Shown: positions 52,113-64,000 of the stretch, in pieces
Layout: each line of letters begins with the position of its first letter
How positions within the stretch are numbered: the first letter of the stretch is position 1
Assembly: GCA_049520815.1 (NCBI GenBank)
Contig: JBEKPL010000002.1
Coordinates: 14,654-78,653 of the forward strand
Length of the DNA: 64,000 nucleotides
Origin: Candidatus Limnocylindrales bacterium
GTDB taxonomy: Bacteria; Chloroflexota; Limnocylindria; Limnocylindrales; CSP1-4
Direction of reading: 5' to 3'
Notes under the pieces: model-generated
The model's input: the letters and a program-made list of their open reading frames with translations, nothing else
The model's database searches: none
What the model was told of the DNA's origin: nothing
Program-made: the position numbers and the translations under genes

Positions 52113-53079
52113 GGGGGGCCTCCCCGCGAGACCGGCTGGCCTCGCCGTTGCGTGACTCGCCGCTCTCGCCGCCAAGTGCCTCGGTGAGGGCCGAGAGCAA
52201 CGAGCGCGACCTGGGGGCGGGCGCCGCAAGAGGCTCGCCGGCGCCCGCCTCCGGCGGAGCGGCCAGGAACGCGAGCAGGGCGATGATCTCGTCGCGCAGG
52301 CGGGGCCGGGTGACGATCCTGTCCACGAACCCGTGGCTGAACCAGAACTCGGCGCGCTGGTAGCCGGGCGGCAATTCCTCGCCGATAGTCCCGGACGAGA
52401 CGCGGTCGCCGGCGAACTGGATGAGCGCATTCGGCTCGGCGATGTTCACGTCGCCGACCGCGGCGAAGGAGGCGAAGACGCCGCCCGTGGTTGGGTCGGT
52501 CAAGACCGAGATGAACGGCACGCGAGCCGCCCGGAGTCTCTCCACGACGCCCATCGTCTTGACGAGCTGCATGAGCGAGTACGTCCCCTCCTGCATGCGA
52601 GCCCCGCCGGAGGACGAGACGATGATGAGAGGGATGCGCTCCGCCAGGGCGGCCTCGCCGGCCCGCGCCACCTTCTCGCCCACGACCGAGCCCATCGAAC
52701 CGCCGATGAACCCGAAGTCCATGACGCACATCGACACCCGCTTGCCGCCCATGGTGGCCAGGCCCCAAACGGCCGCATCGCGCAGGCCAGTGGCAAGCTG
52801 GGCGGCCATGAGCCGATCCGGATAGGACTTCAGGTCCGTGAAGCCCAGGGCGTCCACCGGCTGCAGATCATCGTCTCTCTCTACGAACGAGCCGCCGTCG
52901 ACGAGCTGCTCGATGCGGGACTTGGCCGAGATCCGGAAGTGATGCCCGCAATGAGGACAGACGCGCAGCGTCTTCTCGAGCTGCTTGTTGAACAGCATCT
53001 CCGCGCAGTCCGGGCACTTGGTCCACAAGTCCGGCCGGTAGGCGTCGCGGCGGGGGCGGAAGGGCAACCTAACCGGCAT
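52105..53079 (-). CDS. accD: Acetyl-CoA carboxylase carboxyltransferase beta subunit
   Basis: Zn-finger 'CPDCAEMLF..CPHCGHH' and 'FGFIGGSMGSVVGEK'. ATG 53079 overlaps the upstream stop by 1 nt. Confidence 0.92.
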   Translation of the reverse strand: MPVRLPFRPRRDAYRPDLWTKCPDCAEMLFNKQLEKTLRVCPHCGHHFRISAKSRIEQLVDGGSFVERDDDLQPVDALGFTDLKSYPDRLMAAQLATGLRDAAVWGLATMGGKRVSMCVMDFGFIGGSMGSVVGEKVARAGEAALAERIPLIIVSSSGGARMQEGTYSLMQLVKTMGVVERLRAARVPFISVLTDPTTGGVFASFAAVGDVNIAEPNALIQFAGDRVSSGTIGEELPPGYQRAEFWFSHGFVDRIVTRPRLRDEIIALLAFLAAPPEAGAGEPLAAPAPRSRSLLSALTEALGGESGESRNGEASRSRGEAPRG

Positions 53080-53699
53080 CAGGACACGACCTCCAGGATT
53101 CCGTCGACGACCCCGGTTCGGCGGCGACCGGACCCCGTGGCACGATTGTGGGCCGCCCGTGCGGCACGGCCCATCCGGCCCGACGCCGGGTGCGAATGGC
53201 GCCAGGCAACGTAGACCGCGCCGATCGAGATCGCGGACGCGACGCCCACGCCGCCGACTATCAGCGGCCGTGACTGGCGCGCGGCCATCTCGGGGAGGCG
53301 GCGCAGCGCCCACGCTGGGGAACCCGCGTCCGGCTCCGTCAGAGCGGTGGCGGGCGGCATGGCCGTGGTCACGGGGCCTTCCCCCGCAGGCGAGCGGCTA
53401 CGGTAAGCGGCCATCGTCCCCGGCGTCGCGGCCGCAGCCTCGGTCTCGGCGACCTCTATGTGGAGGCCGGCCCGGAGCCGCATCGCGCCCGCCGCGAGGC
53501 GGGCGGCGAGCGCCTCCTCGAAGCGGAATGAGGGGTGGACTCGGACCAGATCCGCCCGCAACTCGCGCGCCGCGACGCGTATCTGCGGGTCGATGTCGAC
53601 GTCCACGGGGAATTCCGAGGCGCGCCGCTCGTCGGCGGCCATGAGCTCGTCCAGATACCGCTCAGTGCGCCGCGCGTCCCGCATTCCGCCGCCGAGCAT
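53079..53699 (-). CDS. Hypothetical single-pass membrane protein, putative anti-sigma factor
   Basis: It lies immediately downstream of the ECF sigma and overlaps its stop. There is one TM segment near the C-terminus ('PLIVGGVGVASAISIGAVYVAW'). No HxxxCxxC motif is present, so the function is inferred from position only. Confidence 0.45.
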   Translation of the reverse strand: MLGGGMRDARRTERYLDELMAADERRASEFPVDVDIDPQIRVAARELRADLVRVHPSFRFEEALAARLAAGAMRLRAGLHIEVAETEAAAATPGTMAAYRSRSPAGEGPVTTAMPPATALTEPDAGSPAWALRRLPEMAARQSRPLIVGGVGVASAISIGAVYVAWRHSHPASGRMGRAARAAHNRATGSGRRRTGVVDGILEVVS

Positions 53700-54349
53700 C
53701 AGCTCAGTTGCCCCCGCAGGTCGTTTGCCACGGAGCGCAGGGCACGATGCAGCAGCACCCGAACCGCTCCCTCGGAGCGACCCAGTATGGCCGCGATCTC
53801 GGCCGTCGACATCTCGTCGACGAAGCGGAGGATGACCGCCCGGCGGCGATCCTCCGGCAGGCGTGCGACTGCCTGCCAGGCCGCGCTGCCGGCCTCACGA
53901 GCGGCCGCGGTCTCCGCCACGTCGTCCGGGGCGGAGAGCTCCGCAGCTTCCTCGAGAGGGGTGGCGTGGCGGCGTCGGTCCCGGCGTCGCTCGTTCGCGA
54001 CGATGTTGTGGGCGATGCGGAAGAGCCAGACGCGGAACGTGGAGATGTCCGCGGGGTCCGCCCCGCCTTCGATCGTGACCGAACGCGAGGCAATGAAGGC
54101 GTCGACGCGCTCCTCGAAGCGGGGCAGGCCGGCCAGGGCCTGCATGAAGACACGCTCGCTCGCGTCTTCCGCGGCATGGTGGTCCCGGAGCTCGTAGTAC
54201 GCGTAGCTATACACCTGGGCCAGGTACTTCCTATACAGGGCATCGAAGCGAGTTGGATCGCGCCGGGCCGCCTCTACCAGGCCGCGGTCGCGGTCCAGTC
54301 GGGCGGGACGGGTGCCCTCCTGCGCTCTACTCAACACAAGCCGGCTCAA
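53699..54349 (-). CDS. ECF-type RNA polymerase sigma-70 family factor
   Basis: Region 2 'FDALYRKYLAQVYSYAYYEL..AEDASERVF..FRVWLFRIAHNIVANERRR'. Region 4 'LPEDRRRAVILRFVDEMSTAEIAAILGRSEGAVRVLLHRALR'. The start is uncertain (TTG 54349 or GTG 54337), and the ORF is open to 54430. Confidence 0.8.
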   Translation of the reverse strand: MSRLVLSRAQEGTRPARLDRDRGLVEAARRDPTRFDALYRKYLAQVYSYAYYELRDHHAAEDASERVFMQALAGLPRFEERVDAFIASRSVTIEGGADPADISTFRVWLFRIAHNIVANERRRDRRRHATPLEEAAELSAPDDVAETAAAREAGSAAWQAVARLPEDRRRAVILRFVDEMSTAEIAAILGRSEGAVRVLLHRALRSVANDLRGQLS

Positions 54350-54353
54350 TTCG

Positions 54354-55166
54354 TTACACCCCCGCCGTCGATGCGAGCCAGGCGTGGGCGACGTCCCCCG
54401 CGAGAATCTCCCGCTCGACGCCCGGCGCATCTGGGTCCTCGATCAACAGCGCCCCCGACGCCCCATCCACGCCGACCGCGCGAACCGACTCGCTCGAGCC
54501 ATCGGGCAGCTCCAACCTGACCATCCGATCCGTGGTCGCCTGGCGATCGTGCCAGCCCGCCACGTCGAAATGCCCGTCGCGCAGGGCCAGCACGCGCGGC
54601 TCCAGCCGAAGCAGGAACGCGGTCAGCAACTCGTCGGAGTCGATCGAGCGTCCCCGCGAGGCTTCGCGCAGGCTCGTCATCGAGCCCGCCAGCTCCGCCG
54701 GGAACCGTTCGCGCGGCCAGTCCGCGTTCATGCCGATCCCGACCACGGCCTGGACGGCCGCCGTGCCCACGCCCTCGCTCTCGCCCAGAACCCCGCCCAA
54801 CTTGCGCACGCCGGCGTCCCCTGCCACGACGATGTCGTTGGGCCATTTGAGGCGGAGCACGCCGATGGGCAGCCCGGCCACTTCCTCGGCGGCGTCGGCC
54901 ATGGCCAGAGCCACGACCGCACTGAGGCGCCACAGCCGGTCGGGCGGCAGGTAGCTCGGGCGGAAGCCGAGCGACACCAGCAGGGCGGCGCCGCCCGGCG
55001 CGCTCCAGGTTCGGCCCAAGCGCCCCCGCCCGGCCGTCTGCTCGTCGGCGACGGCCACACAGACCTCGGGCGTTCCTCCGGTCATCCAGTTCCGAACGAT
55101 GTCGTTGGTCGAGGGGACCGACCGGAAACGCTCGTGTCGCGAGAAGAACGCTGCGTTCGTCGTCAC
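54354..55166 (-). CDS. birA: Biotin-[acetyl-CoA-carboxylase] ligase (group I, no HTH domain)
   Basis: Motifs 'VADEQTAGRGRLGRTWSAPGG' and 'LKWPNDI'. The GTG start overlaps the lysC stop (GTGA). Confidence 0.9.
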   Translation of the reverse strand: MTTNAAFFSRHERFRSVPSTNDIVRNWMTGGTPEVCVAVADEQTAGRGRLGRTWSAPGGAALLVSLGFRPSYLPPDRLWRLSAVVALAMADAAEEVAGLPIGVLRLKWPNDIVVAGDAGVRKLGGVLGESEGVGTAAVQAVVGIGMNADWPRERFPAELAGSMTSLREASRGRSIDSDELLTAFLLRLEPRVLALRDGHFDVAGWHDRQATTDRMVRLELPDGSSESVRAVGVDGASGALLIEDPDAPGVEREILAGDVAHAWLASTAGV

Positions 55167-56470
55167 GCGCCCGACTTCGGGGTCCCGCCGGATCCCCCAC
55201 CGGCCTCGGCGGCCACCTCGCCCCCGAGCATCGGCTCCGGCTCCTCGAGAGCGAATGCCTTGTGCAATGCCCGAACGGCGGTCTCGACCTGATCCTCGGC
55301 GATCATGCAGGTGATCCGGATCTCCGATGTCGAGATGATCTCGATGTTCACTCCGGCTTCGGCCAGCGCGGCGAACATGCGCGAGGCGTAGCCCGGGGCG
55401 TTCTGGATGCCGGCTCCCACGATCGAGACCTTGGCCATCGCCGAGTCGGTCGTCATCTCGCGAAAGCCGAGCTCACGAACGATCGGCTCGAGGATACGCT
55501 TGGTCTTCGCCAGGTCGCCTCGAGTGATGGTGAAGCTCAGGTCCGTCGTGCCGTGGTGGCCGACGTTCTGGACGATCGTGTCGACGTTGATGCCGGCCTC
55601 GGCCAGGGGCGCGAATACGGCGTGAGCGACGCCAGGCCGGTCCGGGACCTCAACGAGGGTCACCTTGGCCACGTTGCGGTCGTGGGCCAGCCCGCGAACC
55701 TTGTTGCGCTGCTCCACGAACAGGTCCTCCTTGATAAGCGTGCCGGGGACGTCCTCGAACGAGCTCAGCACCTCGATTACGACGTCGTTGACCCAGCCGA
55801 GCTCGACGGCCCGGACCTGCACCACCTGTGCGCCCTGGTGCGCGAGTTCCATCATCTCCTCGTAGGAGACGACCGGCAGCTGGCGAGCCTCGGGCACGAG
55901 ACGCGGGTCGGCCGTGTAGATGCCTCGGACGTCGGTAAAGATCTGGCAGCGATCGGCTTCGAGCGCGGCCGCCAGCGCGACCGCCGTGGTGTCCGAGCCG
56001 CCACGGCCCAGCGTGGTGATCTCGGACAGGTGCGGATCTCGCACGCTCTGGCCCTGGAAGCCGGCGACGATGACGACTCGACCCGCCTCGTTCTCGCTGA
56101 CGATTCGCTTGGTGTCTATGCCGGCGATGCGGGCCTTGCCGTAGTTGCCGTCTGTGGTGATACCCGCCTGAGCGCCGGACAAAGCGATCGCCGGCACGCC
56201 CAGTGCGTGCAGGGCCATCGACACGAGCGTCGCGCTCTGGTGCTCGCCTGTCGCGAGGAGCATGTCCAGCTCGCGCGGATCCGGTTCGTCAGTGATCGCG
56301 CCGGCCAGGGCGAGCAGCTCGTCGGTGGTATCGCCCATCGCCGAGACGACGACGACGAGGTCGCAGCCGGTCGCCCGCTCGCGGGCGATGCGCGCCGCAA
56401 CGCGACGGATCCGGTCGGCGTTGGCGACGGACGAGCCACCGAACTTCTGAACGACGAGGGGTTTGGACAT
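55163..56470 (-). CDS. lysC: Aspartate kinase
   Basis: 'MSKPLVVQKFGGSSVANADRIRRVA' with C-terminal ACT repeats. ATG 56470; the ORF extension to 56566 is rejected. Confidence 0.93.
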   Translation of the reverse strand: MSKPLVVQKFGGSSVANADRIRRVAARIARERATGCDLVVVVSAMGDTTDELLALAGAITDEPDPRELDMLLATGEHQSATLVSMALHALGVPAIALSGAQAGITTDGNYGKARIAGIDTKRIVSENEAGRVVIVAGFQGQSVRDPHLSEITTLGRGGSDTTAVALAAALEADRCQIFTDVRGIYTADPRLVPEARQLPVVSYEEMMELAHQGAQVVQVRAVELGWVNDVVIEVLSSFEDVPGTLIKEDLFVEQRNKVRGLAHDRNVAKVTLVEVPDRPGVAHAVFAPLAEAGINVDTIVQNVGHHGTTDLSFTITRGDLAKTKRILEPIVRELGFREMTTDSAMAKVSIVGAGIQNAPGYASRMFAALAEAGVNIEIISTSEIRITCMIAEDQVETAVRALHKAFALEEPEPMLGGEVAAEAGGGSGGTPKSGA

Positions 56471-56477
56471 GGCGGGC

Positions 56478-56483
56478 ATTCTA
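56478..56483 (-). promoter_or_regulatory. Candidate -10 box TAGAAT placed 7 nt before the lysC ATG (leaderless-type arrangement)
   Basis: The minus strand reads 'gggctgcTAGAATgcccgccATGtcc'. No Shine-Dalgarno is present. Confidence 0.3.
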
Positions 56484-56771
56484 GCAGCCCGAGGCGGCCC
56501 TTCTCGACACCCCGGGGCGCAGCCGGCGGGACTCCTCAATGGCCCGGAAGCGCATCGGCGCTTCATCGCGGCTCACGGGGCGAAGTGGGCCATCAGCCGT
56601 CCTGCCGCGCCAGACCGCGCCGAGCAGCGGGCCACGGCGAGCCGTTACCTCCGCCGGCCAGAGTCTTGACCGCGACGCCATGCCTCAGCTGTGCGACCAT
56701 TCCCGGACGCGGCGCCCTTCACGACGAGGCTCCGCGACGCGGCGAGGCTCGAGACGGTCACCGGAGGCACG

Positions 56772-58103
56772 ATGTTCAGACGACGCGAACGACGCGACAA
56801 GGCGGCAGACGAAGCCGACGAGACGCGCGCCGAGCCCGAGCTCGAGGACGATCTGGCCGAGGGTCTCGACGACGAGCCGGAGGACATGTCCGCCGACCTC
56901 GAGTCGCAGGCCGCAGACTACCTCGCCGACAACGAAGTCTGGATGTACGGCCCCAACGCCGGGGCGGTGCTGGAGATCCTGGACCGGCTCGAGGAGATCA
57001 CCCCGGCCGAGGCCCGGCCCCTCGCCGAAGCGTGGCTGGCGGTCCCCAAGTCGGATCGCGAGCAGGCTCGCAAGGCGGTCCGGAAGCTCTACGAGAGCGA
57101 CGAGGAGACGGCCCGCCACCTTCAGCTGGTCAGGGAGGCCGTCGGAACGTGGATGGCAGTGACAGCCGGCCACCCGGAGTACGTGAGCGCGGAGCCGGAC
57201 TGGGCCCGCATCTGCGCCCAGACCGGCGAGGCGGCGCTGGACGCGGCCACGGCCGTGATCGTGGAAGAGACGCTCGAGGAGAGCCACTTCGAGGCGTTGT
57301 ACTCGCCGTGGTCGGAGACGACGGCCCAGCTGGACGCGGACGCCGAGGCGGCGAGCTTGGAGGGCGGCGACCGGGCTTCTGCAGCCGGCGGGGATGAGGC
57401 GGAGGGCGGCGAGGACGAACAGGATGGCGAGGAGGCCACTGGCGAGGAGGAGGCCCGGTTCGGCCCAAACTCAGACGCCGTGGTGGACTTCCTGAACCGC
57501 CTCTGGCTGCTGACGCCCGAACAGGTCGGGCGGCTTGTGAGCGGCTGGCAGAACGCCCCGCGCGAGGAGTTGCGCCAGGCCCATGACTCCCTGAGCGCCC
57601 TGGTCGACGAGGATCCCGAATGGCGCGAGCAGGTCCGCCAGGCCCAGGAGAAGCTGGCGCCGTGGCTGAACGCCGGGCGCCTCGAGGAGACGGCCGGCTT
57701 CCTCGGCCAGGCCGGCCAGGGTGAGTCCCGCAAGATGGCCGGCCCTGCGCTGGCCGACGCCGTGGCCGCGCTGGTGCTGGGAGATCTGCTCGATTCCGGG
57801 GACGCCGAGGTCCTGTACGGGCCGTGGTTCAACCTGATCGGTGCGCCGCCGCTCCCTGAGCCGGCAGGGGAAGAGGCAGCCAAAGCCAAGGGCAAGGGCA
57901 CGGCGAAGCCCGCCGCCAAGGCCAAGCCGAAGCCTGCGGCCAAGGCCAAGCCAAAGCCTCCGGCCAAGCCGAAGCCCGCCGCCCCGGCCAAGCCAACGCC
58001 TCCGGCCAAGGCGAAGCCCGCCGCAAAGGCGAAGGGCACACCCAAGAAGGCGACGCCGGCAGGCAAGAGTCCGCCCGGGCGTCGACCGGGCCAGGAGGGA
58101 TGA
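56772..58103 (+). CDS. Acidic protein of unknown function with two copies of a ~123-aa module and a Lys/Pro/Ala-rich C-terminal tail
   Basis: GGAGG precedes ATG 56772. GC3 is high on this strand. Modules are at aa 59-181 ('YGPNAG..LYSPW') and aa 230-352 ('FGPNSD..LYGPW'). It is a paralogue of the next gene. Confidence 0.75.
   Translation: MFRRRERRDKAADEADETRAEPELEDDLAEGLDDEPEDMSADLESQAADYLADNEVWMYGPNAGAVLEILDRLEEITPAEARPLAEAWLAVPKSDREQARKAVRKLYESDEETARHLQLVREAVGTWMAVTAGHPEYVSAEPDWARICAQTGEAALDAATAVIVEETLEESHFEALYSPWSETTAQLDADAEAASLEGGDRASAAGGDEAEGGEDEQDGEEATGEEEARFGPNSDAVVDFLNRLWLLTPEQVGRLVSGWQNAPREELRQAHDSLSALVDEDPEWREQVRQAQEKLAPWLNAGRLEETAGFLGQAGQGESRKMAGPALADAVAALVLGDLLDSGDAEVLYGPWFNLIGAPPLPEPAGEEAAKAKGKGTAKPAAKAKPKPAAKAKPKPPAKPKPAAPAKPTPPAKAKPAAKAKGTPKKATPAGKSPPGRRPGQEG
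57874..58066 (+). repeat. Low-complexity coding repeat (AKP/KPA units)
   Basis: It encodes 'AKAKGKGTAKPAAKAKPKPAAKAKPKPPAKPKPAAPAKPTPPAKAKPAAKAKGTPKKATPAGK'. The DNA shows reiterated gccaaggccaagcc(g/a)aagcc units. Confidence 0.85.
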
Positions 58104-59266
58104 TGTTCGGACGAGGGAAGGGGAGGAAGGGGCCCGTCGCCAACCAGCTGAGGGGTGAGGCCAAGCCCAACACACTGAGCTGGGTCGCGACGGACGCCGA
58201 GACCCGTGAGGCGGAGCTCGCGTACGACGAGCTCGCCGAAGATCAGGGGCTCGAAGAAGACCTGGAGGACGAGGCGGACGATCGAACGCCCGCCCAGCGC
58301 CGGGCCGACCTGCAGGCGGAACTCGATCGTCAGGCCGAGGAGTTCGGGCTCACCGGTTCGAACCCGACGGCGATCTACGGTCCGAACGGGGAGGACGTGG
58401 AGGCGGTCCTCGAGGCGCTGTCGGGCATCGACACGGACCGGGCGGAGCAGCTCGCAGATGCGTGGGTGGCCGGCGACGCGACCGAGCGCGAAGTCCTGGA
58501 GCGTGACCTGCTGCGTCGCAGCCGCCTCGGGACGCACAGTTTCGAGCTGACGGCAGCGGAGGACGCGGTCGCGGCCTGGCTCAACGCCCAGACGCCCGAG
58601 GACGATGCCGATGCCGCTCTTTGGAGCCTGGTGGCGGATGCCGCCCGCGGAGCAGTCGACGCGCTGATCCTGGACGAAGAACTGGACGACGCCGACTTCG
58701 GCCTGCTCTACGGTCCGTGGGCGGACGTCATGGACGCCGACGAAGAGAACGGCGCGGCCGAAGCCGTGGGAAGCGGGGCAACGCAGGAGGACCCGGCGCG
58801 AGGCCCCGAGGGATCCCCGGACGAGCCGGACGGGGAGTTCGGACCCAATACGGAGCTGGTCCGGCAGTTCCTCGTGAAGCTCGGCGAGCTGACTCCCGAA
58901 CGTATCGGGGAGTTGACCGCCTTCTGGAACGGGCAATCGAAGTCGGACCTGCGGCAGGCGCATCGGGCCATGCAGGAGTTGGCCAAGGAGGACGAGACCT
59001 GGCGAGAGCAGGTCAGGGCGGCACAGGAGCAGATCACGACCTGGGCCAACGGCCCTCACGAGATCCGGCACGGCGGTGGCCTTCGACGGCCCTCGAGCGA
59101 GGTCGAGGCCAGGCTGGCCGCGCTTCCTCCCGTCACCGATGCGGTCTCGGCGCTGGTGCTGGCCGACCTGCTCGACCGGGAGGATGCGGAGACGCTCTAT
59201 GCCGCCTGGGAAGCGGCGGTCGGCGAGCCGACGCTTCCGGCGTTCGAGGACGACGGGACCGCCTGA
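58100..59266 (+). CDS. Acidic protein of unknown function, tandem paralogue with two copies of the same module
   Basis: ATGA overlap with the upstream gene. Modules are at aa 93-207 ('YGPNGE..LYGPW') and aa 247-370 ('FGPNTE..LTPERIGEL..LRQAHRAM..WREQVRAAQE..LYAAW'). Confidence 0.75.
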   Translation: MMFGRGKGRKGPVANQLRGEAKPNTLSWVATDAETREAELAYDELAEDQGLEEDLEDEADDRTPAQRRADLQAELDRQAEEFGLTGSNPTAIYGPNGEDVEAVLEALSGIDTDRAEQLADAWVAGDATEREVLERDLLRRSRLGTHSFELTAAEDAVAAWLNAQTPEDDADAALWSLVADAARGAVDALILDEELDDADFGLLYGPWADVMDADEENGAAEAVGSGATQEDPARGPEGSPDEPDGEFGPNTELVRQFLVKLGELTPERIGELTAFWNGQSKSDLRQAHRAMQELAKEDETWREQVRAAQEQITTWANGPHEIRHGGGLRRPSSEVEARLAALPPVTDAVSALVLADLLDREDAETLYAAWEAAVGEPTLPAFEDDGTA

Positions 59267-59388
59267 GCCGAAGGTCCCAAGGCGGACGACCAAAGGCCGG
59301 ACGAACTGACGCCGGCCCCGGACAGGCACTCGCCGAGGGCTCCTGCCTCGCCTGGACACGCGACCGGCCATCTGCAAGACTCGCGGCC

Positions 59389-59994
59389 ATGAAGCAATCG
59401 ATCGTCACCCTGGACATGGAAGGCGTGCTGACGCCGGAAATCTGGATTGCCGTGTCCGAAAAGACGGGCATCCCGGAACTGCGCCGCACCACGCGCGATG
59501 AGCCCGACTACGACAAGCTCATGCGCGGGCGCCTGGCAATACTCGACCAGCATGGATTGAAGCTGTCGGACATCCAGAACGTCATCGGCACGCTGCGGCC
59601 CCTGCCCGGTGCAAAGGAGTTCCTGGACGAACTGCGCCCGTTCGTGCAGGTCGTGATCCTGTCCGACACGTTCGAGCAGTTCGCCGCTCCCCTGCTCCGC
59701 CAGCTCAATTGGCCAACCCTGCTGTGCCACCGCCTGGTCGTCGAGAACGATCACATCGTTGACTACCAGCTGCGCATTCGGGAGCAGAAGCGCGAGGCCG
59801 TGGCCGCGTTCAAACGGATGAACTATCACGTCATCGCTGGGGGCGATTCCTTCAACGACACGAAGATGCTCGCCGAAGCGGACTGCGGCATCCTGTTCCG
59901 CGCGCCCGACGGTGTGAAACAGCAATTCCCCCAGTTCCCGGCCGTGGAAACCTACGCCGACTTGATGAAGCTGATCAAGCAAGAGATGGCGTAG
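59389..59994 (+). CDS. thrH: ThrH-type HAD phosphoserine phosphatase / homoserine phosphotransferase
   Basis: 'IVTLDMEGVLTPEIWIAVSEKTGI..TTRDEPDYDKLM..RLAILDQHGLKLSDIQ..VVILSDTF..PTLLCH..GDSFNDT.ML..FPQFPAV.TY' is collinear with my recollection of Pseudomonas ThrH. Confidence 0.8.
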   Translation: MKQSIVTLDMEGVLTPEIWIAVSEKTGIPELRRTTRDEPDYDKLMRGRLAILDQHGLKLSDIQNVIGTLRPLPGAKEFLDELRPFVQVVILSDTFEQFAAPLLRQLNWPTLLCHRLVVENDHIVDYQLRIREQKREAVAAFKRMNYHVIAGGDSFNDTKMLAEADCGILFRAPDGVKQQFPQFPAVETYADLMKLIKQEMA

Positions 59995-60050
59995 GCGCTG
60001 CCGGCGGGCCTGCGAACGGCCGCCTGCTTGCTCCCGAGTTCCGCCGCTCT

Positions 60051-60078
60051 GCGCTTAAGTCGCATGCGACTAATGCGC
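60051..60078. terminator. 28-bp imperfect palindrome with a perfect 14-bp core AGTCGCATGCGACT between convergent thrH and thrC
   Basis: GCGCTTAAGTCGCATGCGACTAATGCGC has 12 of 14 arm positions complementary. It is relatively A/T-rich for this genome. Confidence 0.4.
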
Positions 60079-60125
60079 TGTCGCGTCGGACTCGATCGCG
60101 TCAGTCGGCCGACCCTGCCCCTCTG

Positions 60126-61226
60126 CTACCAGCCCAGGGCGCGGACGACGCCATCGATCGTCGCCGCCGACTCGCGGATCGCGCCGGCGCCGCCGGCGGT
60201 TCGCTCAGCAGTCTCCGGGTCCTTGAGGCCGTGGCCGGTCAGGACGCACACGATCGTGGCGTCGCGATCGATCCGCCCCGCCGCCGCCAGCTTGCAGATG
60301 CCCGCCAGGCTGGCGGCCGAAGCGGGCTCGCAGAAGACTCCCTGGCTCGTGGCCAGTTCCCGATACGCGGCCACTATCTCTTCGTCCGTGACCGTCTCGA
60401 TGAGCCCGCCGGACTCGTCGCGAGCGGCCTCGGCCTGCTTCCAGCTGGCCGGGTTGCCGATGCGGATGGCCGTGGCGATCGTCTCGGGCTTCTCGACGGG
60501 ATGGCCCAGCACGATCGGCGCCGCGCCGGCCGCCTGGAACCCGAACATGCGCGGCCGCGCCGAGATCCGGCCCGCGGCCTGATAGCGCGAGAAGCCGGCC
60601 CAGTAGGCCGTGATGTTGCCGGCGTTGCCGACGGGAATGGCCAGGATGTCGGGGACGCGGCCGAGGTCGTCGCAGACCTCGAACGCGGCGGTGGTCTGGC
60701 CATCGATGCGGTAGGGGTTGACCGAGTTGACCAGCGTCACCGGATGGGCGGTCTGCTCGGCCATCTCCCGGACGACCGTCAGCGCCTGGTCGAAGTTGCC
60801 GTCCACGGCGATGACCTTGGCGCCGGCGGCGATCGCCTGGATCAACTTACCCAGGGCGATCTTGCCCTTTGGCAGGACGACGATGACCTCCAGCCCGGCG
60901 GCGGCACCGTAGGCCGCGGCCGAGGCGGAGGTGTTGCCGGTCGAGGCGCAGATGACCGCCCGCGCGCCCTCCTCGACGGCCTTGGATATGGCCACGACCA
61001 TCCCCCGATCCTTGAAAGAGCCGGTCGGGTTCGTGCCCTCGTACTTCACGAAGAGGTTCGGAACGCCGATGCGCGCCCCGATATGGTCGAGCCGAATGAG
61101 AGGCGTGAAGCCCTCGCCCAGGCTGATGATCGGAGTGGCGTCCGATATCGGCAGGAACTCGCGATAGCGCTCGACCAGGCGCGGCCGGGCAGCGGAGACG
61201 TCCGAGAGGTTGAGGGGCGTGGACAC
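60126..61226 (-). CDS. thrC: Threonine synthase
   Basis: Motifs 'ISLGEGFTPLIRL' and 'VKYEGTNPTGSFKDRG' (PLP Lys). Confidence 0.93.
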   Translation of the reverse strand: MSTPLNLSDVSAARPRLVERYREFLPISDATPIISLGEGFTPLIRLDHIGARIGVPNLFVKYEGTNPTGSFKDRGMVVAISKAVEEGARAVICASTGNTSASAAAYGAAAGLEVIVVLPKGKIALGKLIQAIAAGAKVIAVDGNFDQALTVVREMAEQTAHPVTLVNSVNPYRIDGQTTAAFEVCDDLGRVPDILAIPVGNAGNITAYWAGFSRYQAAGRISARPRMFGFQAAGAAPIVLGHPVEKPETIATAIRIGNPASWKQAEAARDESGGLIETVTDEEIVAAYRELATSQGVFCEPASAASLAGICKLAAAGRIDRDATIVCVLTGHGLKDPETAERTAGGAGAIRESAATIDGVVRALGW

Positions 61227-61241
61227 GGCAGATGGCTCCGT

Positions 61242-62564
61242 CTACGAGGTCAGGATCGGGTAGATGGGGATGTCGCGGTCGGGGTCGATGAGCGGCTCGA
61301 TGGCCTCGCGGACCTCGGCCAGCGGCAGCGGCCGCGTCTGAACCGCCACCCAAGTCCGGCTCCGGTGCCGTGGGAGGCTGCTGGGCGGCGGCGTGGCCAC
61401 CTCCTCAGCGAGGCGACCCGGGACTTCGTCCGGCAGCACGCCGGGCAGGCAGACATACCACGGCCGGCGGATGGTGGCACGGTCATCGGCGAGGGTCACG
61501 AGACCGGGCGCCGCGGGCGGCAGATCCGCCCAGGTTGACAGGCCGCTCCGGACGACTTCGAGCAGGTCGGCAAGGACGGCGCTGCTGGTCGCGGGACCGC
61601 CGGCGCCGGGACCCTCGAGGGAGACGCGACCGACCGGGTCGGCGTCGACCTCCAATCGGTTGAGCACGCCGTCGGTGCGGCCGAGGGGCGCGGCTACCGG
61701 TACGGCGGAGGTCATCACGGAGCCGGCCAGGCCGAATGCGGGCTCGGCTGTGCCGGGCGTGCTGGCGGTGGCAATCAGCCGGATGGCCAGACCCAGGGCC
61801 ACGGCTCCGGCGATGTCATTGGCCGAAACGCCGGTGATGCCAGGCTTGCCGTCGCCGCGCAATGACGGCGGGCTGGCGATGATGGAGCCGATCTCCGGCC
61901 ACGCCCCAAAAGCCAGCCGGGTCAGGACGGCGAGCTTGTTGGCGGCGTCGTGGCCCTCAACGTCGGCGCTCGGGTCACGCTCGGCATAGCCCTGGCCTTG
62001 TGCCGCGGCGAGCACCTCCTCGTAGCTGCGCCTGGCCTGCATCATCTCGGTCAGGATGAAGTTGGTGCTGCCGTTGACGATGCCCCGCACCCGGCGGATG
62101 TGGTTGGCGGCCAGGCCGCGGGCAATCGCGTCCAGGACTGGGGTGCCGCCGCAGACGGAGGCTTCGTAGCGAAAAGCCGTGCCCTTCGCGCGCGCGATCG
62201 CCTCCAGCTCCAGGCCGTGATGAGCCAGGACATGCTTGTTCGCGGTCACGACCGGCTTCCCCGCCCCGAGCGCCTCGGCGATCAGCGAGCGGGCCGGCTC
62301 GTCTCCGCCCAGCAGCTCCACGACCACGTCCACGTCGTCGCGCCTGACCACGGCTCCGGCGTCCGGCACGATGATCTCGCGCGGCATGCCGCGGTCTACG
62401 GCGCCCTCCACGTCGAGGTCGGCGATGGCCACCAGCTCGAGCATCCGGCCGCGGGCCGGGCCGATGCGCCGGTCGGGGTTGCGAAGGAACCCTCGGGCCA
62501 CCTCTGCGCCGACGGTGCCCACGCCGAGGATCGCGACACGGACGGGTCGTTGCTCGGTGGGCAT
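61242..62564 (-). CDS. hom: Homoserine dehydrogenase
   Basis: 'VRVAILGVGTVGAEVARG' with a C-terminal ACT-like region. ATG 62564; the extension to 62777 is rejected. Confidence 0.9.
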   Translation of the reverse strand: MPTEQRPVRVAILGVGTVGAEVARGFLRNPDRRIGPARGRMLELVAIADLDVEGAVDRGMPREIIVPDAGAVVRRDDVDVVVELLGGDEPARSLIAEALGAGKPVVTANKHVLAHHGLELEAIARAKGTAFRYEASVCGGTPVLDAIARGLAANHIRRVRGIVNGSTNFILTEMMQARRSYEEVLAAAQGQGYAERDPSADVEGHDAANKLAVLTRLAFGAWPEIGSIIASPPSLRGDGKPGITGVSANDIAGAVALGLAIRLIATASTPGTAEPAFGLAGSVMTSAVPVAAPLGRTDGVLNRLEVDADPVGRVSLEGPGAGGPATSSAVLADLLEVVRSGLSTWADLPPAAPGLVTLADDRATIRRPWYVCLPGVLPDEVPGRLAEEVATPPPSSLPRHRSRTWVAVQTRPLPLAEVREAIEPLIDPDRDIPIYPILTS

Positions 62565-62736
62565 TGGCACTCGACTGGGGCCAGCGGCACCGAGTTGGAA
62601 CCGCAGCCGACGGTGACGGACGGGCTGTGCGTCGTCCAGGAATGGTACCCGAGGCGTCGCCACTTCGGTTCGTGGCCGCCAGGACGGTGGACGCGGGTCG
62701 GTCGCTCGCGGGGATCGGTGGTAGGTTCCCCTGGTC

Positions 62737-63306
62737 ATGGGCCCGATCCTCCTCATCGACAACTTCGACTCCTTCACCTACAACGTCTTCCACGGCCTGG
62801 TTGAGGCCGGCGCGAGGGTTGAGGTCCACCGGCGCGATCTGATCGATCTGGAGGCGATCGATGCCCTCGATCCGCGGATGATCGTGCTGTCGCCCGGACC
62901 CGGCCGCCCCGAGGAGACGGGCGTGTGCCTCGACGTCGCGCGGACCCTGTGCGGACGAGTACCGATCCTGGGCATCTGTCTCGGGCTCCAGGTCCTGGCC
63001 GTGACCTGCGGAGGCCGCGTGGGTCCGGCCCCGGAGCCAATCCACGGCAAGACTTCGGCCGTGGCGCACGACGGGCGGGGGCTGTTCGAGGGGTTGCCAT
63101 CGCCGATGACGGTCGGGCGCTATCACTCGCTCTGCGTGACGGAAGTCCCACCCGAGATGGATGTCTGCGCCCGCACCGCGGACGGCACCGTGATGGGCCT
63201 GCGGCATCGCCACTTGTCGATGGCGGGCCTGCAGTTCCACCCCGACTCCTTCCTGACGCAGGACGGCTCCAAGATGCTATGGAACGCGGTCCATGGACGT
63301 TTCTGA
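62737..63306 (+). CDS. pabA: Glutamine amidotransferase component II of aminodeoxychorismate/anthranilate synthase
   Basis: Motifs 'ILLIDNFDSFTYNV', 'PILGICLGLQ' (catalytic Cys) and 'GLQFHPDS'. Confidence 0.85.
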   Translation: MGPILLIDNFDSFTYNVFHGLVEAGARVEVHRRDLIDLEAIDALDPRMIVLSPGPGRPEETGVCLDVARTLCGRVPILGICLGLQVLAVTCGGRVGPAPEPIHGKTSAVAHDGRGLFEGLPSPMTVGRYHSLCVTEVPPEMDVCARTADGTVMGLRHRHLSMAGLQFHPDSFLTQDGSKMLWNAVHGRF

Positions 63307-64000
63307 GACCTGGACCGCCAGGCGCGAGACCTACCCGTCGGCCGGCCTGCCCGATCTGCCCGACATGACCCCGTTCGCCCTGCTCCACGGCGCAGGCCGC
63401 TGGGTCATCCTCGCCGAGGATCCTCTGGCGGCGGTCGAGGCGGCCGATTTCGCGCCCTTCCGCTTCGAGCGGTCAGGATCGGCGCCCCCGATCAGGCCGG
63501 ACCTGGTCGGCCTCGTCGGGTACGGATACGACGCCGGCTGCGGACCGACCACTCCCCGGCATCCCGCCCGCGAGCCACTGAGTCTCCCGGACTTCCGCTT
63601 CGTGTTGTACGGCCGGGTCCGCGTCTGGGACCGCGAACTGGGAATGCTGTACGAGGGAGTCCGCCGGGCGCCGCGTATGATCGAACCCAAGCCGAGCCTG
63701 GTGAGGCCCGGGCGCTTCCAGGCTCGCAAGGTATGGGACACCGATGCGCCGGCCGGCTACTGGGCCAAGGTCGGGCGCATCCGCGAGGAGATCGCCCGCG
63801 GCAACGTCTATCAGGTCGATCTCACGCGCCAGGAAGCCTGGGCGTACGAGGGCAGCCTCCTGTCGTTCGCCGGGCGCCTGGCCGAGGCCGACCCAGCGCC
63901 CCGATCGGCCATCGTCGTCGAGCCCGACTTCGCCATCATCGGCGCCAGCCCCGAGTCATTCCTACGCATTGATGGCGGGGTGATCACGACACGACCGATC
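63293..64000 (+). CDS. pabB: Chorismate-binding component I (aminodeoxychorismate synthase-like), partial, runs off the window end
   Basis: My own translation from ATG 63293: 'MDVSETWTARRETYPS..GRIREEIARGNVYQVDLTRQ..IIGASPESFLRIDGGVITTRPI'. It overlaps the pabA end by 14 nt. This ORF is not in the supplied track because no stop lies inside the window. Confidence 0.75.
   Translation, partial: MDVSETWTARRETYPSAGLPDLPDMTPFALLHGAGRWVILAEDPLAAVEAADFAPFRFERSGSAPPIRPDLVGLVGYGYDAGCGPTTPRHPAREPLSLPDFRFVLYGRVRVWDRELGMLYEGVRRAPRMIEPKPSLVRPGRFQARKVWDTDAPAGYWAKVGRIREEIARGNVYQVDLTRQEAWAYEGSLLSFAGRLAEADPAPRSAIVVEPDFAIIGASPESFLRIDGGVITTRPI

Follow-up and report, generated by a model that had tools for sequence, protein, structure and literature searches.

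The stretch of DNA analyzed here, a window of 64 kb (64,000 nucleotides (nt) of contig JBEKPL010000002.1 from a Candidatus Limnocylindrales bacterium), contains two adjacent plus-strand genes between lysC and thrH that are referred to as gene A (56772-58103, 443 amino acids (aa) from its ATG in the open reading frame (ORF) listing of the window) and gene B (58100-59266, 388 aa, or 387 aa from the start at 58103 that is conserved among its orthologs). The encoded proteins are paralogs (36% identity over 334 aa, BLASTP E=2e-47), and each carries two copies of a single module that lies outside every characterized family compared, by sequence as well as by predicted fold, its sole match being an uncharacterized PHROG, phrog_8332. 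A pair of tandem paralogous genes on the plus strand had already been proposed in an earlier description of this DNA made from its letters alone, the sequence-only reading, and this proposal was borne out by the ORFs, the BLASTP match, the GC3 values and the substitution pattern reported below.

Protein searches yielded 178 relatives of B and 284 relatives of A, and the best 120 of each, which were examined, proved to be orthologs of the query. Identities of 59-83% for at least 120 orthologs of A and of 42-78% for the best 120 of 178 for B reflect conservation at the protein level. Nearly all of these relatives are unnamed or labeled 'hypothetical protein', none has a Pfam domain, and the only organisms named among them are Candidatus Limnocylindrales metagenome-assembled genomes (MAGs). 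A scan of one genome per GTDB species resulted in 44 loci, all titled Chloroflexota MAGs (Chloroflexi, Chloroflexia or Limnocylindria/-ales, with two 'uncultured Anaerolineaceae'), and many of them have isolate names suggestive of surveys of peat, fen and soil.

Coding strand and start codons

A and B are genuine, selected plus-strand genes. The guanine-plus-cytosine (GC) content of the region is about 70%, and the GC fractions at the three codon positions (0.76/0.51/0.87 in A and 0.77/0.47/0.85 in B, the last value of each being GC3) follow the same pattern as in the nearby lysC and thrC. In comparison with four relatives, substitutions cluster at third positions of the plus frame (differences between B and its counterpart at locus L001 by codon position were 48/53/126), and the ratio of nonsynonymous to synonymous substitution rates (dN/dS), which is 0.14-0.5 for the modules, rises in the linkers and the tail. 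These two results, together with the conserved ATG and ribosome-binding site (RBS) of A, identify the plus frames as coding. The ATG of A at 56772 is preceded by a GGAGG(A) RBS that is conserved in relatives, and since these support this start by the RBS as well as by the first codons, an alternative GTG start at 56691 was set aside. The first nine codons of A (ATG TTC AGG/AGA CGA CGC GAx CGx CGC GAC, 56772-56798) are near-identical, down to the choice of Arg codons, at loci whose A proteins share only 55-79% identity over their length; not only the peptide but also the mRNA of the translation initiation region therefore seems to be under constraint.

The 751-aa ORF on the opposite strand (57122-59377) shares a high GC3 (0.82), but its translation is low-complexity and Arg/Gly/Pro-rich, and we regard it as a by-product of the high GC content, at which long antisense ORFs are expected. 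The possibility that this ORF is the genuine product, or that the region is non-coding, is already effectively refuted and retains next to no probability, as the GC3 pattern, the plus-frame third-position substitutions and a dN/dS well under 1 count against it and are joined by plus-frame proteins conserved to 42% identity with a recognizable domain structure, by conserved ribosome-binding sites, and by confident AlphaFold models for B and its second module. The sequence-only reading had likewise considered the antisense ORF an unlikely product, and the GC3, substitution positions and dN/dS agree with it; its start for B (MMFGRGKGRKG, 388 aa) had to be corrected, since orthologs conserve the second ATG at 58103 (MFGRGKG, 387 aa).

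Four copies of one module

A search of the window with a hidden Markov model (HMM) of the module identified exactly four copies. In gene A these are modules A1 (56940-57323, aa 57-184, local HMM E=7.5e-47) and A2 (57456-57839, aa 229-356, 1.8e-48), and in gene B modules B1 (58370-58735, aa 91-212, 2e-36) and B2 (58835-59224, aa 246-375, 3.7e-45). By BLASTP the similarity between first and second modules is only marginal (E=0.08); comparison of ortholog profiles by hhalign matched residues 88-212 of B to residues 243-375 over 122 columns (probability 99.2%, E=2.3e-19), and all four module types fit a single alignment of 133-137 columns. Mean identities were 0.31 between A1 and B1 and 0.41 between A2 and B2, compared to 0.24-0.27 for the cross pairs. 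Judging from this pairing, the module was first duplicated within an ancestral gene, and this two-module ancestor was later duplicated as a whole gene. Both the presence of four copies of one module, which the sequence-only reading had put at 115-125 aa and which measures about 125 aa, and the order of the two duplications were thus correctly read from the letters.

The module in sequence and structure databases

Neither of the whole proteins matched Pfam-A or NCBIfam above threshold, and no match above a curated threshold was obtained for 35 single modules and 30 relatives in Pfam or for 40 modules in NCBIfam. The best E values in these searches (about 0.006-0.05) fell short of the thresholds and belonged to mutually inconsistent families; Barstar, CHASE3 and DUF6767 (E about 0.05) were discarded as noise. 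A, B and six relatives had no counterpart in PADLOC-DB v2 at E up to 0.1. The only PDB sequences recovered by profile search were designed Ala-rich helical proteins, which represent an artefact of composition and not homology. With Foldseek, the best E value was 0.6 for the whole B model, and 1.1 in PDB and 1.3 in BFVD for the module, with template-modeling (TM) scores of at most about 0.39. FliS/FliT, 14-3-3, PhoU and NusB, which are likewise all-helical and of similar size, were rejected as fold relatives, none being significant (E of at least 0.6, TM-score of at most 0.39). A literature search for the phrog_8332 identifier and for Limnocylindria genomics found no account of these proteins.

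In contrast to these databases, the PHROG collection contains a family, phrog_8332 (function unknown), that all four modules match end to end at about positions 127-242 of its 248-position profile (full-length E=1.1e-4 for A1 and 2.3e-3 for A2; E=1.9e-8 for B1 and 5e-5 for B2). Whole B matches it in two stretches with E=2.1e-12, small phage-type proteins match it down to E 3e-29, and an alignment of window-type proteins matches one of phage-type proteins with a probability of 99.8% (hhalign, E=1.3e-27). When 1.84 billion cluster representatives were searched with a profile built from all four module types, 792 were recovered at E<=1e-3 and 138 at E<=1e-10, and on the strength of these profile matches the module is part of a widespread uncharacterized superfamily that is phrog_8332-like. 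The proposal of a candidate new family without a named match in the sequence-only reading therefore stands in so far as no characterized domain family in Pfam, NCBIfam, PADLOC, PDB or BFVD accommodates the module, but the family had been catalogued before as phrog_8332.

The 792 representatives include A and B orthologs, stand-alone proteins of 95-190 aa, proteins with an N-terminal transmembrane anchor, phage-borne proteins and a kinase-fused protein. Every relative checked was unnamed or 'hypothetical', and the few other automatic labels were mutually inconsistent. Among the fusions, one protein joins a single module to a DUF4328 membrane domain and a zinc ribbon, another carries a zinc ribbon and two modules, and a Ser/Thr kinase, the only kinase fusion seen, has two modules at its C-terminus. 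The gene for this kinase (L052, 1158-5643) lies downstream of an FHA-domain gene and is cut within the kinase domain by an IS21 element (istA/istB). At another locus (L046, 6001-6685), the gene of a stand-alone 142-aa module has, 14 nt behind it, a gene for an 80-aa two-helix membrane protein that ends in a zinc ribbon, and this neighbor together with the P0291 fusion may reflect a recurrent association of the module with membrane zinc-ribbon proteins.

Many of the small relatives follow the pattern 'MKYGPNT..V..LI..IK.ITPEQA..L..AW ... ALVV.DLIS.E.F..LYGPWASVME', with a middle part of Ala/Trp/Asp/Arg-rich repeats. Homologs on phage contigs are located near genes for tape-measure, endolysin-like, helix-turn-helix (HTH) and NinX proteins, sometimes in two copies. 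Small homologs occur twice each on IMGVR_UViG_3300012683_000013 (L056/L057) and IMGVR_UViG_3300017605_001118 (L058/L059), and single-module homologs at L055 (5001-5411) and on phage contigs are found amid short unknown genes near HTH, NinX-like, lysis or tail genes. A tblastn search of three small relatives against GenBank phages returned weak matches only, to hypothetical proteins of Propionibacterium phages Doucette and B22.

Predicted structure and conserved positions

The AlphaFold2 model of B, computed with a 40-sequence alignment, has a mean predicted local distance difference test score (pLDDT) of 81. It consists of two all-helical blocks (residues 64-219 and 248-373) with a pLDDT mostly above 90, while the N-terminal 60 residues and the linker between the modules remain below 55. 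Module B2 modeled alone with 35 module sequences reached a pLDDT of 91.1 and a predicted TM-score (pTM) of 0.84, and was predicted to form seven helices. Across the four module types G4, P5, N6, V10, L17, W71, A104, A107, L114, L122 and W126 are invariant or nearly so, G-P-N being located at the start of helix 1, and A104, A107, L122, P125 and W126 stay (near-)invariant when 36 stand-alone relatives are added. The sequence landmarks of the phrog_8332-like superfamily are present, with [YF]-G-P-N opening helix 1, a conserved Trp closing helix 2, D-A-V-x-A-L in the penultimate helices and L-[YF]-x-P-W at the end. Most of the conserved positions hold a hydrophobic, small or helix-capping residue. 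None holds an acidic or basic residue or a Cys, His or Ser, which argues against an enzyme. We infer that the module is a non-enzymatic binding or assembly domain.

Charge distribution and conserved motifs of the two proteins

Outside the modules both proteins are dominated by charged segments. A has an isoelectric point (pI) of 4.6 and a net charge of -35 and B a pI of 4.1 and a net charge of -55, compared to median net charges of -44 and -66 among their respective orthologs, and both start with a short basic peptide. In A this peptide is MFRRRERRDK (56772-56801; all features in this section are encoded on the plus strand), with 73/120 orthologs beginning MFRRRDR; we take it to resemble arginine-rich RNA-binding peptides such as that of lambda N, a likeness that was not used in our conclusion. 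It is followed by a first acidic linker ending in the conserved pre-module segment ADLESQAADYLADN (56802-56939, with charges of -15 for aa 11-43 and -4 for aa 44-56), which from its composition is probably disordered, only B having been modeled. The second acidic linker, between A1 and A2 (57324-57455, aa 185-228, net -16), varies in length and sequence among orthologs. Downstream of A2, the motif GAPPLPE (57840-57869) forms part of a W-F-x-L-I-G-A-P-x-L-P signature present in 116 of the 120 A orthologs, and the protein ends in a Lys/Ala/Pro-rich basic tail of 77 aa (57870-58100, net +19) that begins AKPAAKAKPKPAAKAKPKPPAKPKP and whose last 17 aa correspond to a former spacer. Ortholog tails range from 13 to 136 aa, with a median length of 59 aa, a median net charge of +10 and 56% K+A+P.

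The basic N-terminal region of B (58100-58189) contains the motif A-N-x-L...(K/E)-P-N-x-L-S-W (114/120 B orthologs) and is followed by an acidic disordered linker and a conserved helix with the consensus LQAELxRQAEEFGLTG (58190-58369; pLDDT <55 for residues 1-60). This helix spans residues 64-81, and E74, R77, A79, E80, E81, G83 and L84 are invariant in orthologs. Between B1 (pLDDT 90-98) and B2 lies a second acidic disordered linker (58736-58834, pLDDT about 39, net charge -9), and the C-terminus carries the acidic motif (G)EPxLPxFEDD (59225-59263) in 118/120 orthologs.

Candidate docking peptides of the pair are MFRRRDRRDK, ANxL..PNxLSW, GEPxLPxFEDD and WFNLIGAPPLPE. The charge layout (-35 overall with a tail of +19 in A, and -55 in B) is kept in 116-118 of 120 orthologs. 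The motifs are not confined to these positions. Some A orthologs have the B-type PNxL motif at their very C-terminal end, a PNxL-x(6-8)-PNxL pair precedes the module in the distant single-module proteins P0269, P0283, P0284, P0289, P0294, P0307 and P0362, and PxLPxYEDD-type C-terminal motifs are also present on the kinase-fused and several single-module relatives. The terminal motifs thus travel with the module, as would be expected of docking peptides. No Tat or Sec signal peptide was recognized in either protein when the sequence was read directly and not with a dedicated predictor, as MFRRRERRDK and MFGRGKGRKG run into acidic, non-hydrophobic sequence; A and B are presumably cytoplasmic, given that they have neither a signal peptide nor a hydrophobic segment.

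The junction between A and B and the region upstream of A

In most relatives the stop codon of A lies 22-76 nt 5' of the ATG of B, which has its own GGAGGG RBS. Relatives aligned over the junction end A with Lys-Lys or Arg-Lys (AAGAAG or AGGAAG) before the stop. In the window (58047-58105), this ancestral stop (TAG, as in AAGAAG-TAG of relatives) has been lost, and a C-to-T change from GGGACGATG to GGGATGATG yields an extra ATG (58100) as well as the TGA that now ends A. Because of these two changes A reads 17 codons further, gaining 17 residues from the former spacer, and its coding region now spans the RBS of B. From this comparison the ATGA overlap is real, derived and specific to the genome of the window and is not a feature of the family. 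Translational coupling through this overlap, as suggested by the sequence-only reading, is not conserved. Given their short distance and shared orientation at all loci, A and B are probably co-transcribed.

A conserved element is located upstream of A (56649-56702, plus strand) and ends in the 14-mer CTGTGCGACCATTC (56689-56702), preceded by a semi-conserved GACGCC. The 14-mer occurs a single time in the 64-kb window, 60-95 nt 5' of the ATG of A, and its 12-nt core CTGTGCGACCAT is present in exactly one copy 5' of A in 24 fetched loci. CTGTGCGACCATTC could serve as an operator or, as a candidate promoter, contain an extended -10 (TGc-GACCAT), with the stem-loop then at the 5' end of the transcript; a scan for the sigma-70 consensus called no promoter for A. 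The 5' leader that follows (56703-56771, plus strand) comprises a GC-rich stem-loop region and the RBS GGAGG (56763-56767). A hairpin of variable length between the motif and the RBS was found in 25/25 leaders, with energies slightly better than those of shuffled sequences (mean z = -1.0, which does not demonstrate selection), and RNAalifold detected no covariation in the leaders. A functional RNA in the leader was dropped from consideration for these reasons. No Rfam family matched positions 53000-64000 at E up to 0.1, and no lysine or other riboswitch was found between lysC and A.

The start of lysC itself, listed as an ORF of 467 aa from 56566 on the minus strand, is probably further downstream at MSKPLVVQKFGG. 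Orthologs align only past the upstream extension, within which a promoter-like TG-extended -10 site is located (56507-56478, minus strand).

Conservation of the locus

At all loci with sufficient flanking sequence, the gene order is a sigma-factor gene, birA and lysC on one strand, A, B and thrH on the other, and thrC and hom again on the first. Wherever a fetched locus covers the two genes, A directly precedes B. This conserved gene order alone says little about function, because the sampled genomes are fairly close relatives, and the view of the sequence-only reading that the neighboring genes offer no functional clue holds. No mobile-element genes were detected in the conserved neighborhood. 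Across loci the neighboring enzymes are mostly 80-95% identical, compared to 54-79% for A and 41-75% for B, and mean p-distances were 0.36 for A and 0.46 for B versus 0.07-0.15 for the neighbors. The divergence of A and that of B are correlated after accounting for four neighboring genes (partial Mantel r = 0.49, permutation p=0.001), the highest value among the pairs tested. Beyond this correlation and the constant adjacency of the genes, the 'two-component module' suggested earlier is speculation.

Two divergent loci contain three paralogs in the same slot, from which we conclude that the family kept duplicating in place. At L049 (5845-8561) these comprise 313, 370 and 186 aa, the first being A-like without the MFRR start or the basic tail, the second B-like, and the third a single-module protein with B-type terminal motifs. 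At L064 (4496-8949) they comprise 388, 453 and 621 aa, and the third has three modules and a small extra N-terminal domain.

In many relatives a dienelactone hydrolase gene, sometimes accompanied by a gene for a DoxX-like membrane protein, is inserted between lysC and A (L003, 4625-6353; L027, 4625-5395; L064, 3590-4384), a gap that measures only about 300 bp in the window. These genes were ruled out as partners, being missing from the window and many loci. In four Microflora Danica ('MFD') MAGs (L019, L035, L039 and L029), lysC, hom, thrC, birA, A and B appear split into 2-3 frames, which looks like the result of assembly frameshift errors and not of pseudogene formation.

Possible roles of the pair

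The reading that we tentatively prefer, as possible but short of probable, is that A and B form a hetero-oligomeric scaffold or adaptor with a lineage-specific housekeeping role in Limnocylindria. The modules would provide folded interaction surfaces, and the MFRR-basic peptide, the PNxL-PNxL pair and PxLPxFEDD would dock a partner or the modules themselves, while the basic tail of A would serve to anchor this strongly anionic assembly, either on a polyanion such as DNA or RNA or on the acidic linkers. The resulting role would be one in lineage-specific organization or regulation and not in mobile-element or defense biology. Fusion partners such as the kinase, the DUF4328 membrane domain with zinc ribbon and the membrane anchors are typical of interaction or sensor domains and were counted in favor of a scaffold.

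Several observations weigh against this proposal. No characterized homolog was found from which a function could be transferred, the N-terminal motifs are not placed confidently on the modules in the B model (pLDDT <50), and the A-like protein of the divergent lineage L049 is missing the basic tail. Adjacency and synteny may simply reflect the kinship of the genomes, whose neighboring enzymes are 85-95% identical, and the link between the divergence of A and that of B is modest, as lysC and hom reach 0.43 in the same partial Mantel test.

A more specific version, in which the pair would be a previously unknown kind of cytoplasmic organizer, appears unlikely. The two block-charged paralogs (B with -55, A with -35 and its +19 tail) would in this case assemble through electrostatic contacts and through their modules into a condensate or hub held at the nucleoid or on RNA. 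If this reading were true, it would concern a fold without a solved structure that is common to phage proteins, which may target or mimic the same cellular partner.

The layout of the pair can be compared, by analogy only, with two kinds of known proteins. PopZ of Alphaproteobacteria combines a short conserved N-terminal peptide with a long acidic disordered linker and a C-terminal helical assembly region at a pI of about 4. A and B would resemble such hubs in the layout of charge and disorder only; they differ in fold and in the number of folded modules, form a paralogous pair, and have neither sequence similarity nor a Pfam match in common with PopZ. Homology to PopZ is therefore unsupported, no Pfam match of any kind having been obtained. 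Lys/Ala/Pro-rich tails resembling histone H1 are known from mycobacterial HupB/MDP1, chlamydial Hc1 and AlgP of Pseudomonas, and the KP spacers of TonB-like proteins are compositionally similar to the tail of A. The C-terminal 77 residues of A (AKPAAKAKPKPAAKAKPKPPAKPKP..., +19) appear to match the H1-like tails in composition and repeat character. Unlike those, the tail of A is attached to an acidic two-module protein and not to HU or another DNA-binding fold, and it is poorly conserved in length and sequence (13-136 aa) and absent from one divergent lineage.

Also unlikely is a phage-conflict origin of the present function, in which A and B would be a domesticated phage family (phrog_8332-like) still engaged in phage-host conflict as decoys, immunity factors or inhibitors akin to DNA mimics. 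The end-to-end matches of all four modules to phrog_8332, the hhalign match to small phage-type proteins and the homologs on phage contigs, sometimes in two copies, fit such an origin. Known DNA-mimic proteins are extremely acidic, and A and B could be called DNA-mimic-like in this respect. They also evolve 3-6 times faster than their neighbors, and the locus varies in the number of genes (two to three) as well as in the number of modules per protein (one to three). On the other hand, there was no PADLOC match, the pair occupies a constant chromosomal position in all sampled species, its conserved neighborhood contains neither an integrase gene nor any other gene of mobile elements, and the modules are under purifying selection (dN/dS 0.14-0.5).

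A and B have several landmarks in common with the phrog_8332 members, namely [YF]GPN at the start of helix 1, the ..L(T)PEQ..L..AW segment and the ..DAV.ALV..DL....F..LYGPW end. Members that occur in phages or stand alone consist of just one module and measure 95-190 aa, many of the smallest with an Ala/Trp/Asp/Arg-rich repeat middle, whereas A and B are 390-440 aa long and have two modules, acidic linkers, terminal motifs, a basic tail in A and a fixed chromosomal context.

An involvement in aspartate-family metabolism, with A and B as accessory or regulatory factors of Thr/Lys synthesis that might, for example, modulate or assemble the enzymes of the neighboring genes (LysC, ThrH, ThrC and Hom), is improbable. 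It would account for the location of the pair between lysC and thrH and beside thrC and hom at all loci with enough flanking sequence, a context that persists in the three-gene lineages L049 and L064, and the start of thrH 3-25 nt after the stop of B in several relatives is compatible with one operon. The whole region, including the sigma-factor gene and birA, is syntenic in these close relatives, though, so that the arrangement is indistinguishable from one that was simply inherited. Between B and thrH, anything from an overlap to a gap of about 2 kb is seen, and lysC is separated from A by additional genes in many loci. Neither A nor B is coupled to thrH in its divergence (partial r = -0.11 and 0.05), stand-alone and phage homologs occur in unrelated contexts, and we know of no Thr/Lys pathway that uses such a protein.

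We give equally little credence to the module being a ligand- or signal-sensing domain, which would make A and B soluble sensors or regulators and would give a corresponding task to the double module of the fused Ser/Thr kinase. Sensor domains do occur in architectures of this kind, in which the module is joined to a kinase (encoded next to an FHA-domain gene), a membrane anchor or a zinc ribbon. Against this reading, polar residues conserved as in a pocket were not found, an output domain is missing from both A and B, and the single kinase fusion seen belongs to a gene disrupted by an IS21 element.

Significance of the module and of the pair

The module has a confident predicted fold (pLDDT 91) of about 125 aa and at least 792 cluster representatives from metagenomes and phages, and its absence from Pfam, NCBIfam and PDB constitutes a gap in the domain databases. 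'New' is used here in the sense of uncharacterized and unlike anything characterized; many domains of unknown function exist, and we make no claim of an unprecedented mechanism. The Limnocylindria are abundant uncultured Chloroflexota of soil, peat and freshwater whose cell biology is essentially undescribed. With its strict conservation, purifying selection and conserved putative docking motifs, the pair in these bacteria is the best handle on the function of the module. If A and B act as an organizer or adaptor, they would represent a lineage-specific form of cell organization, and the phage homologs would in that case indicate that phages manipulate a process of the host.

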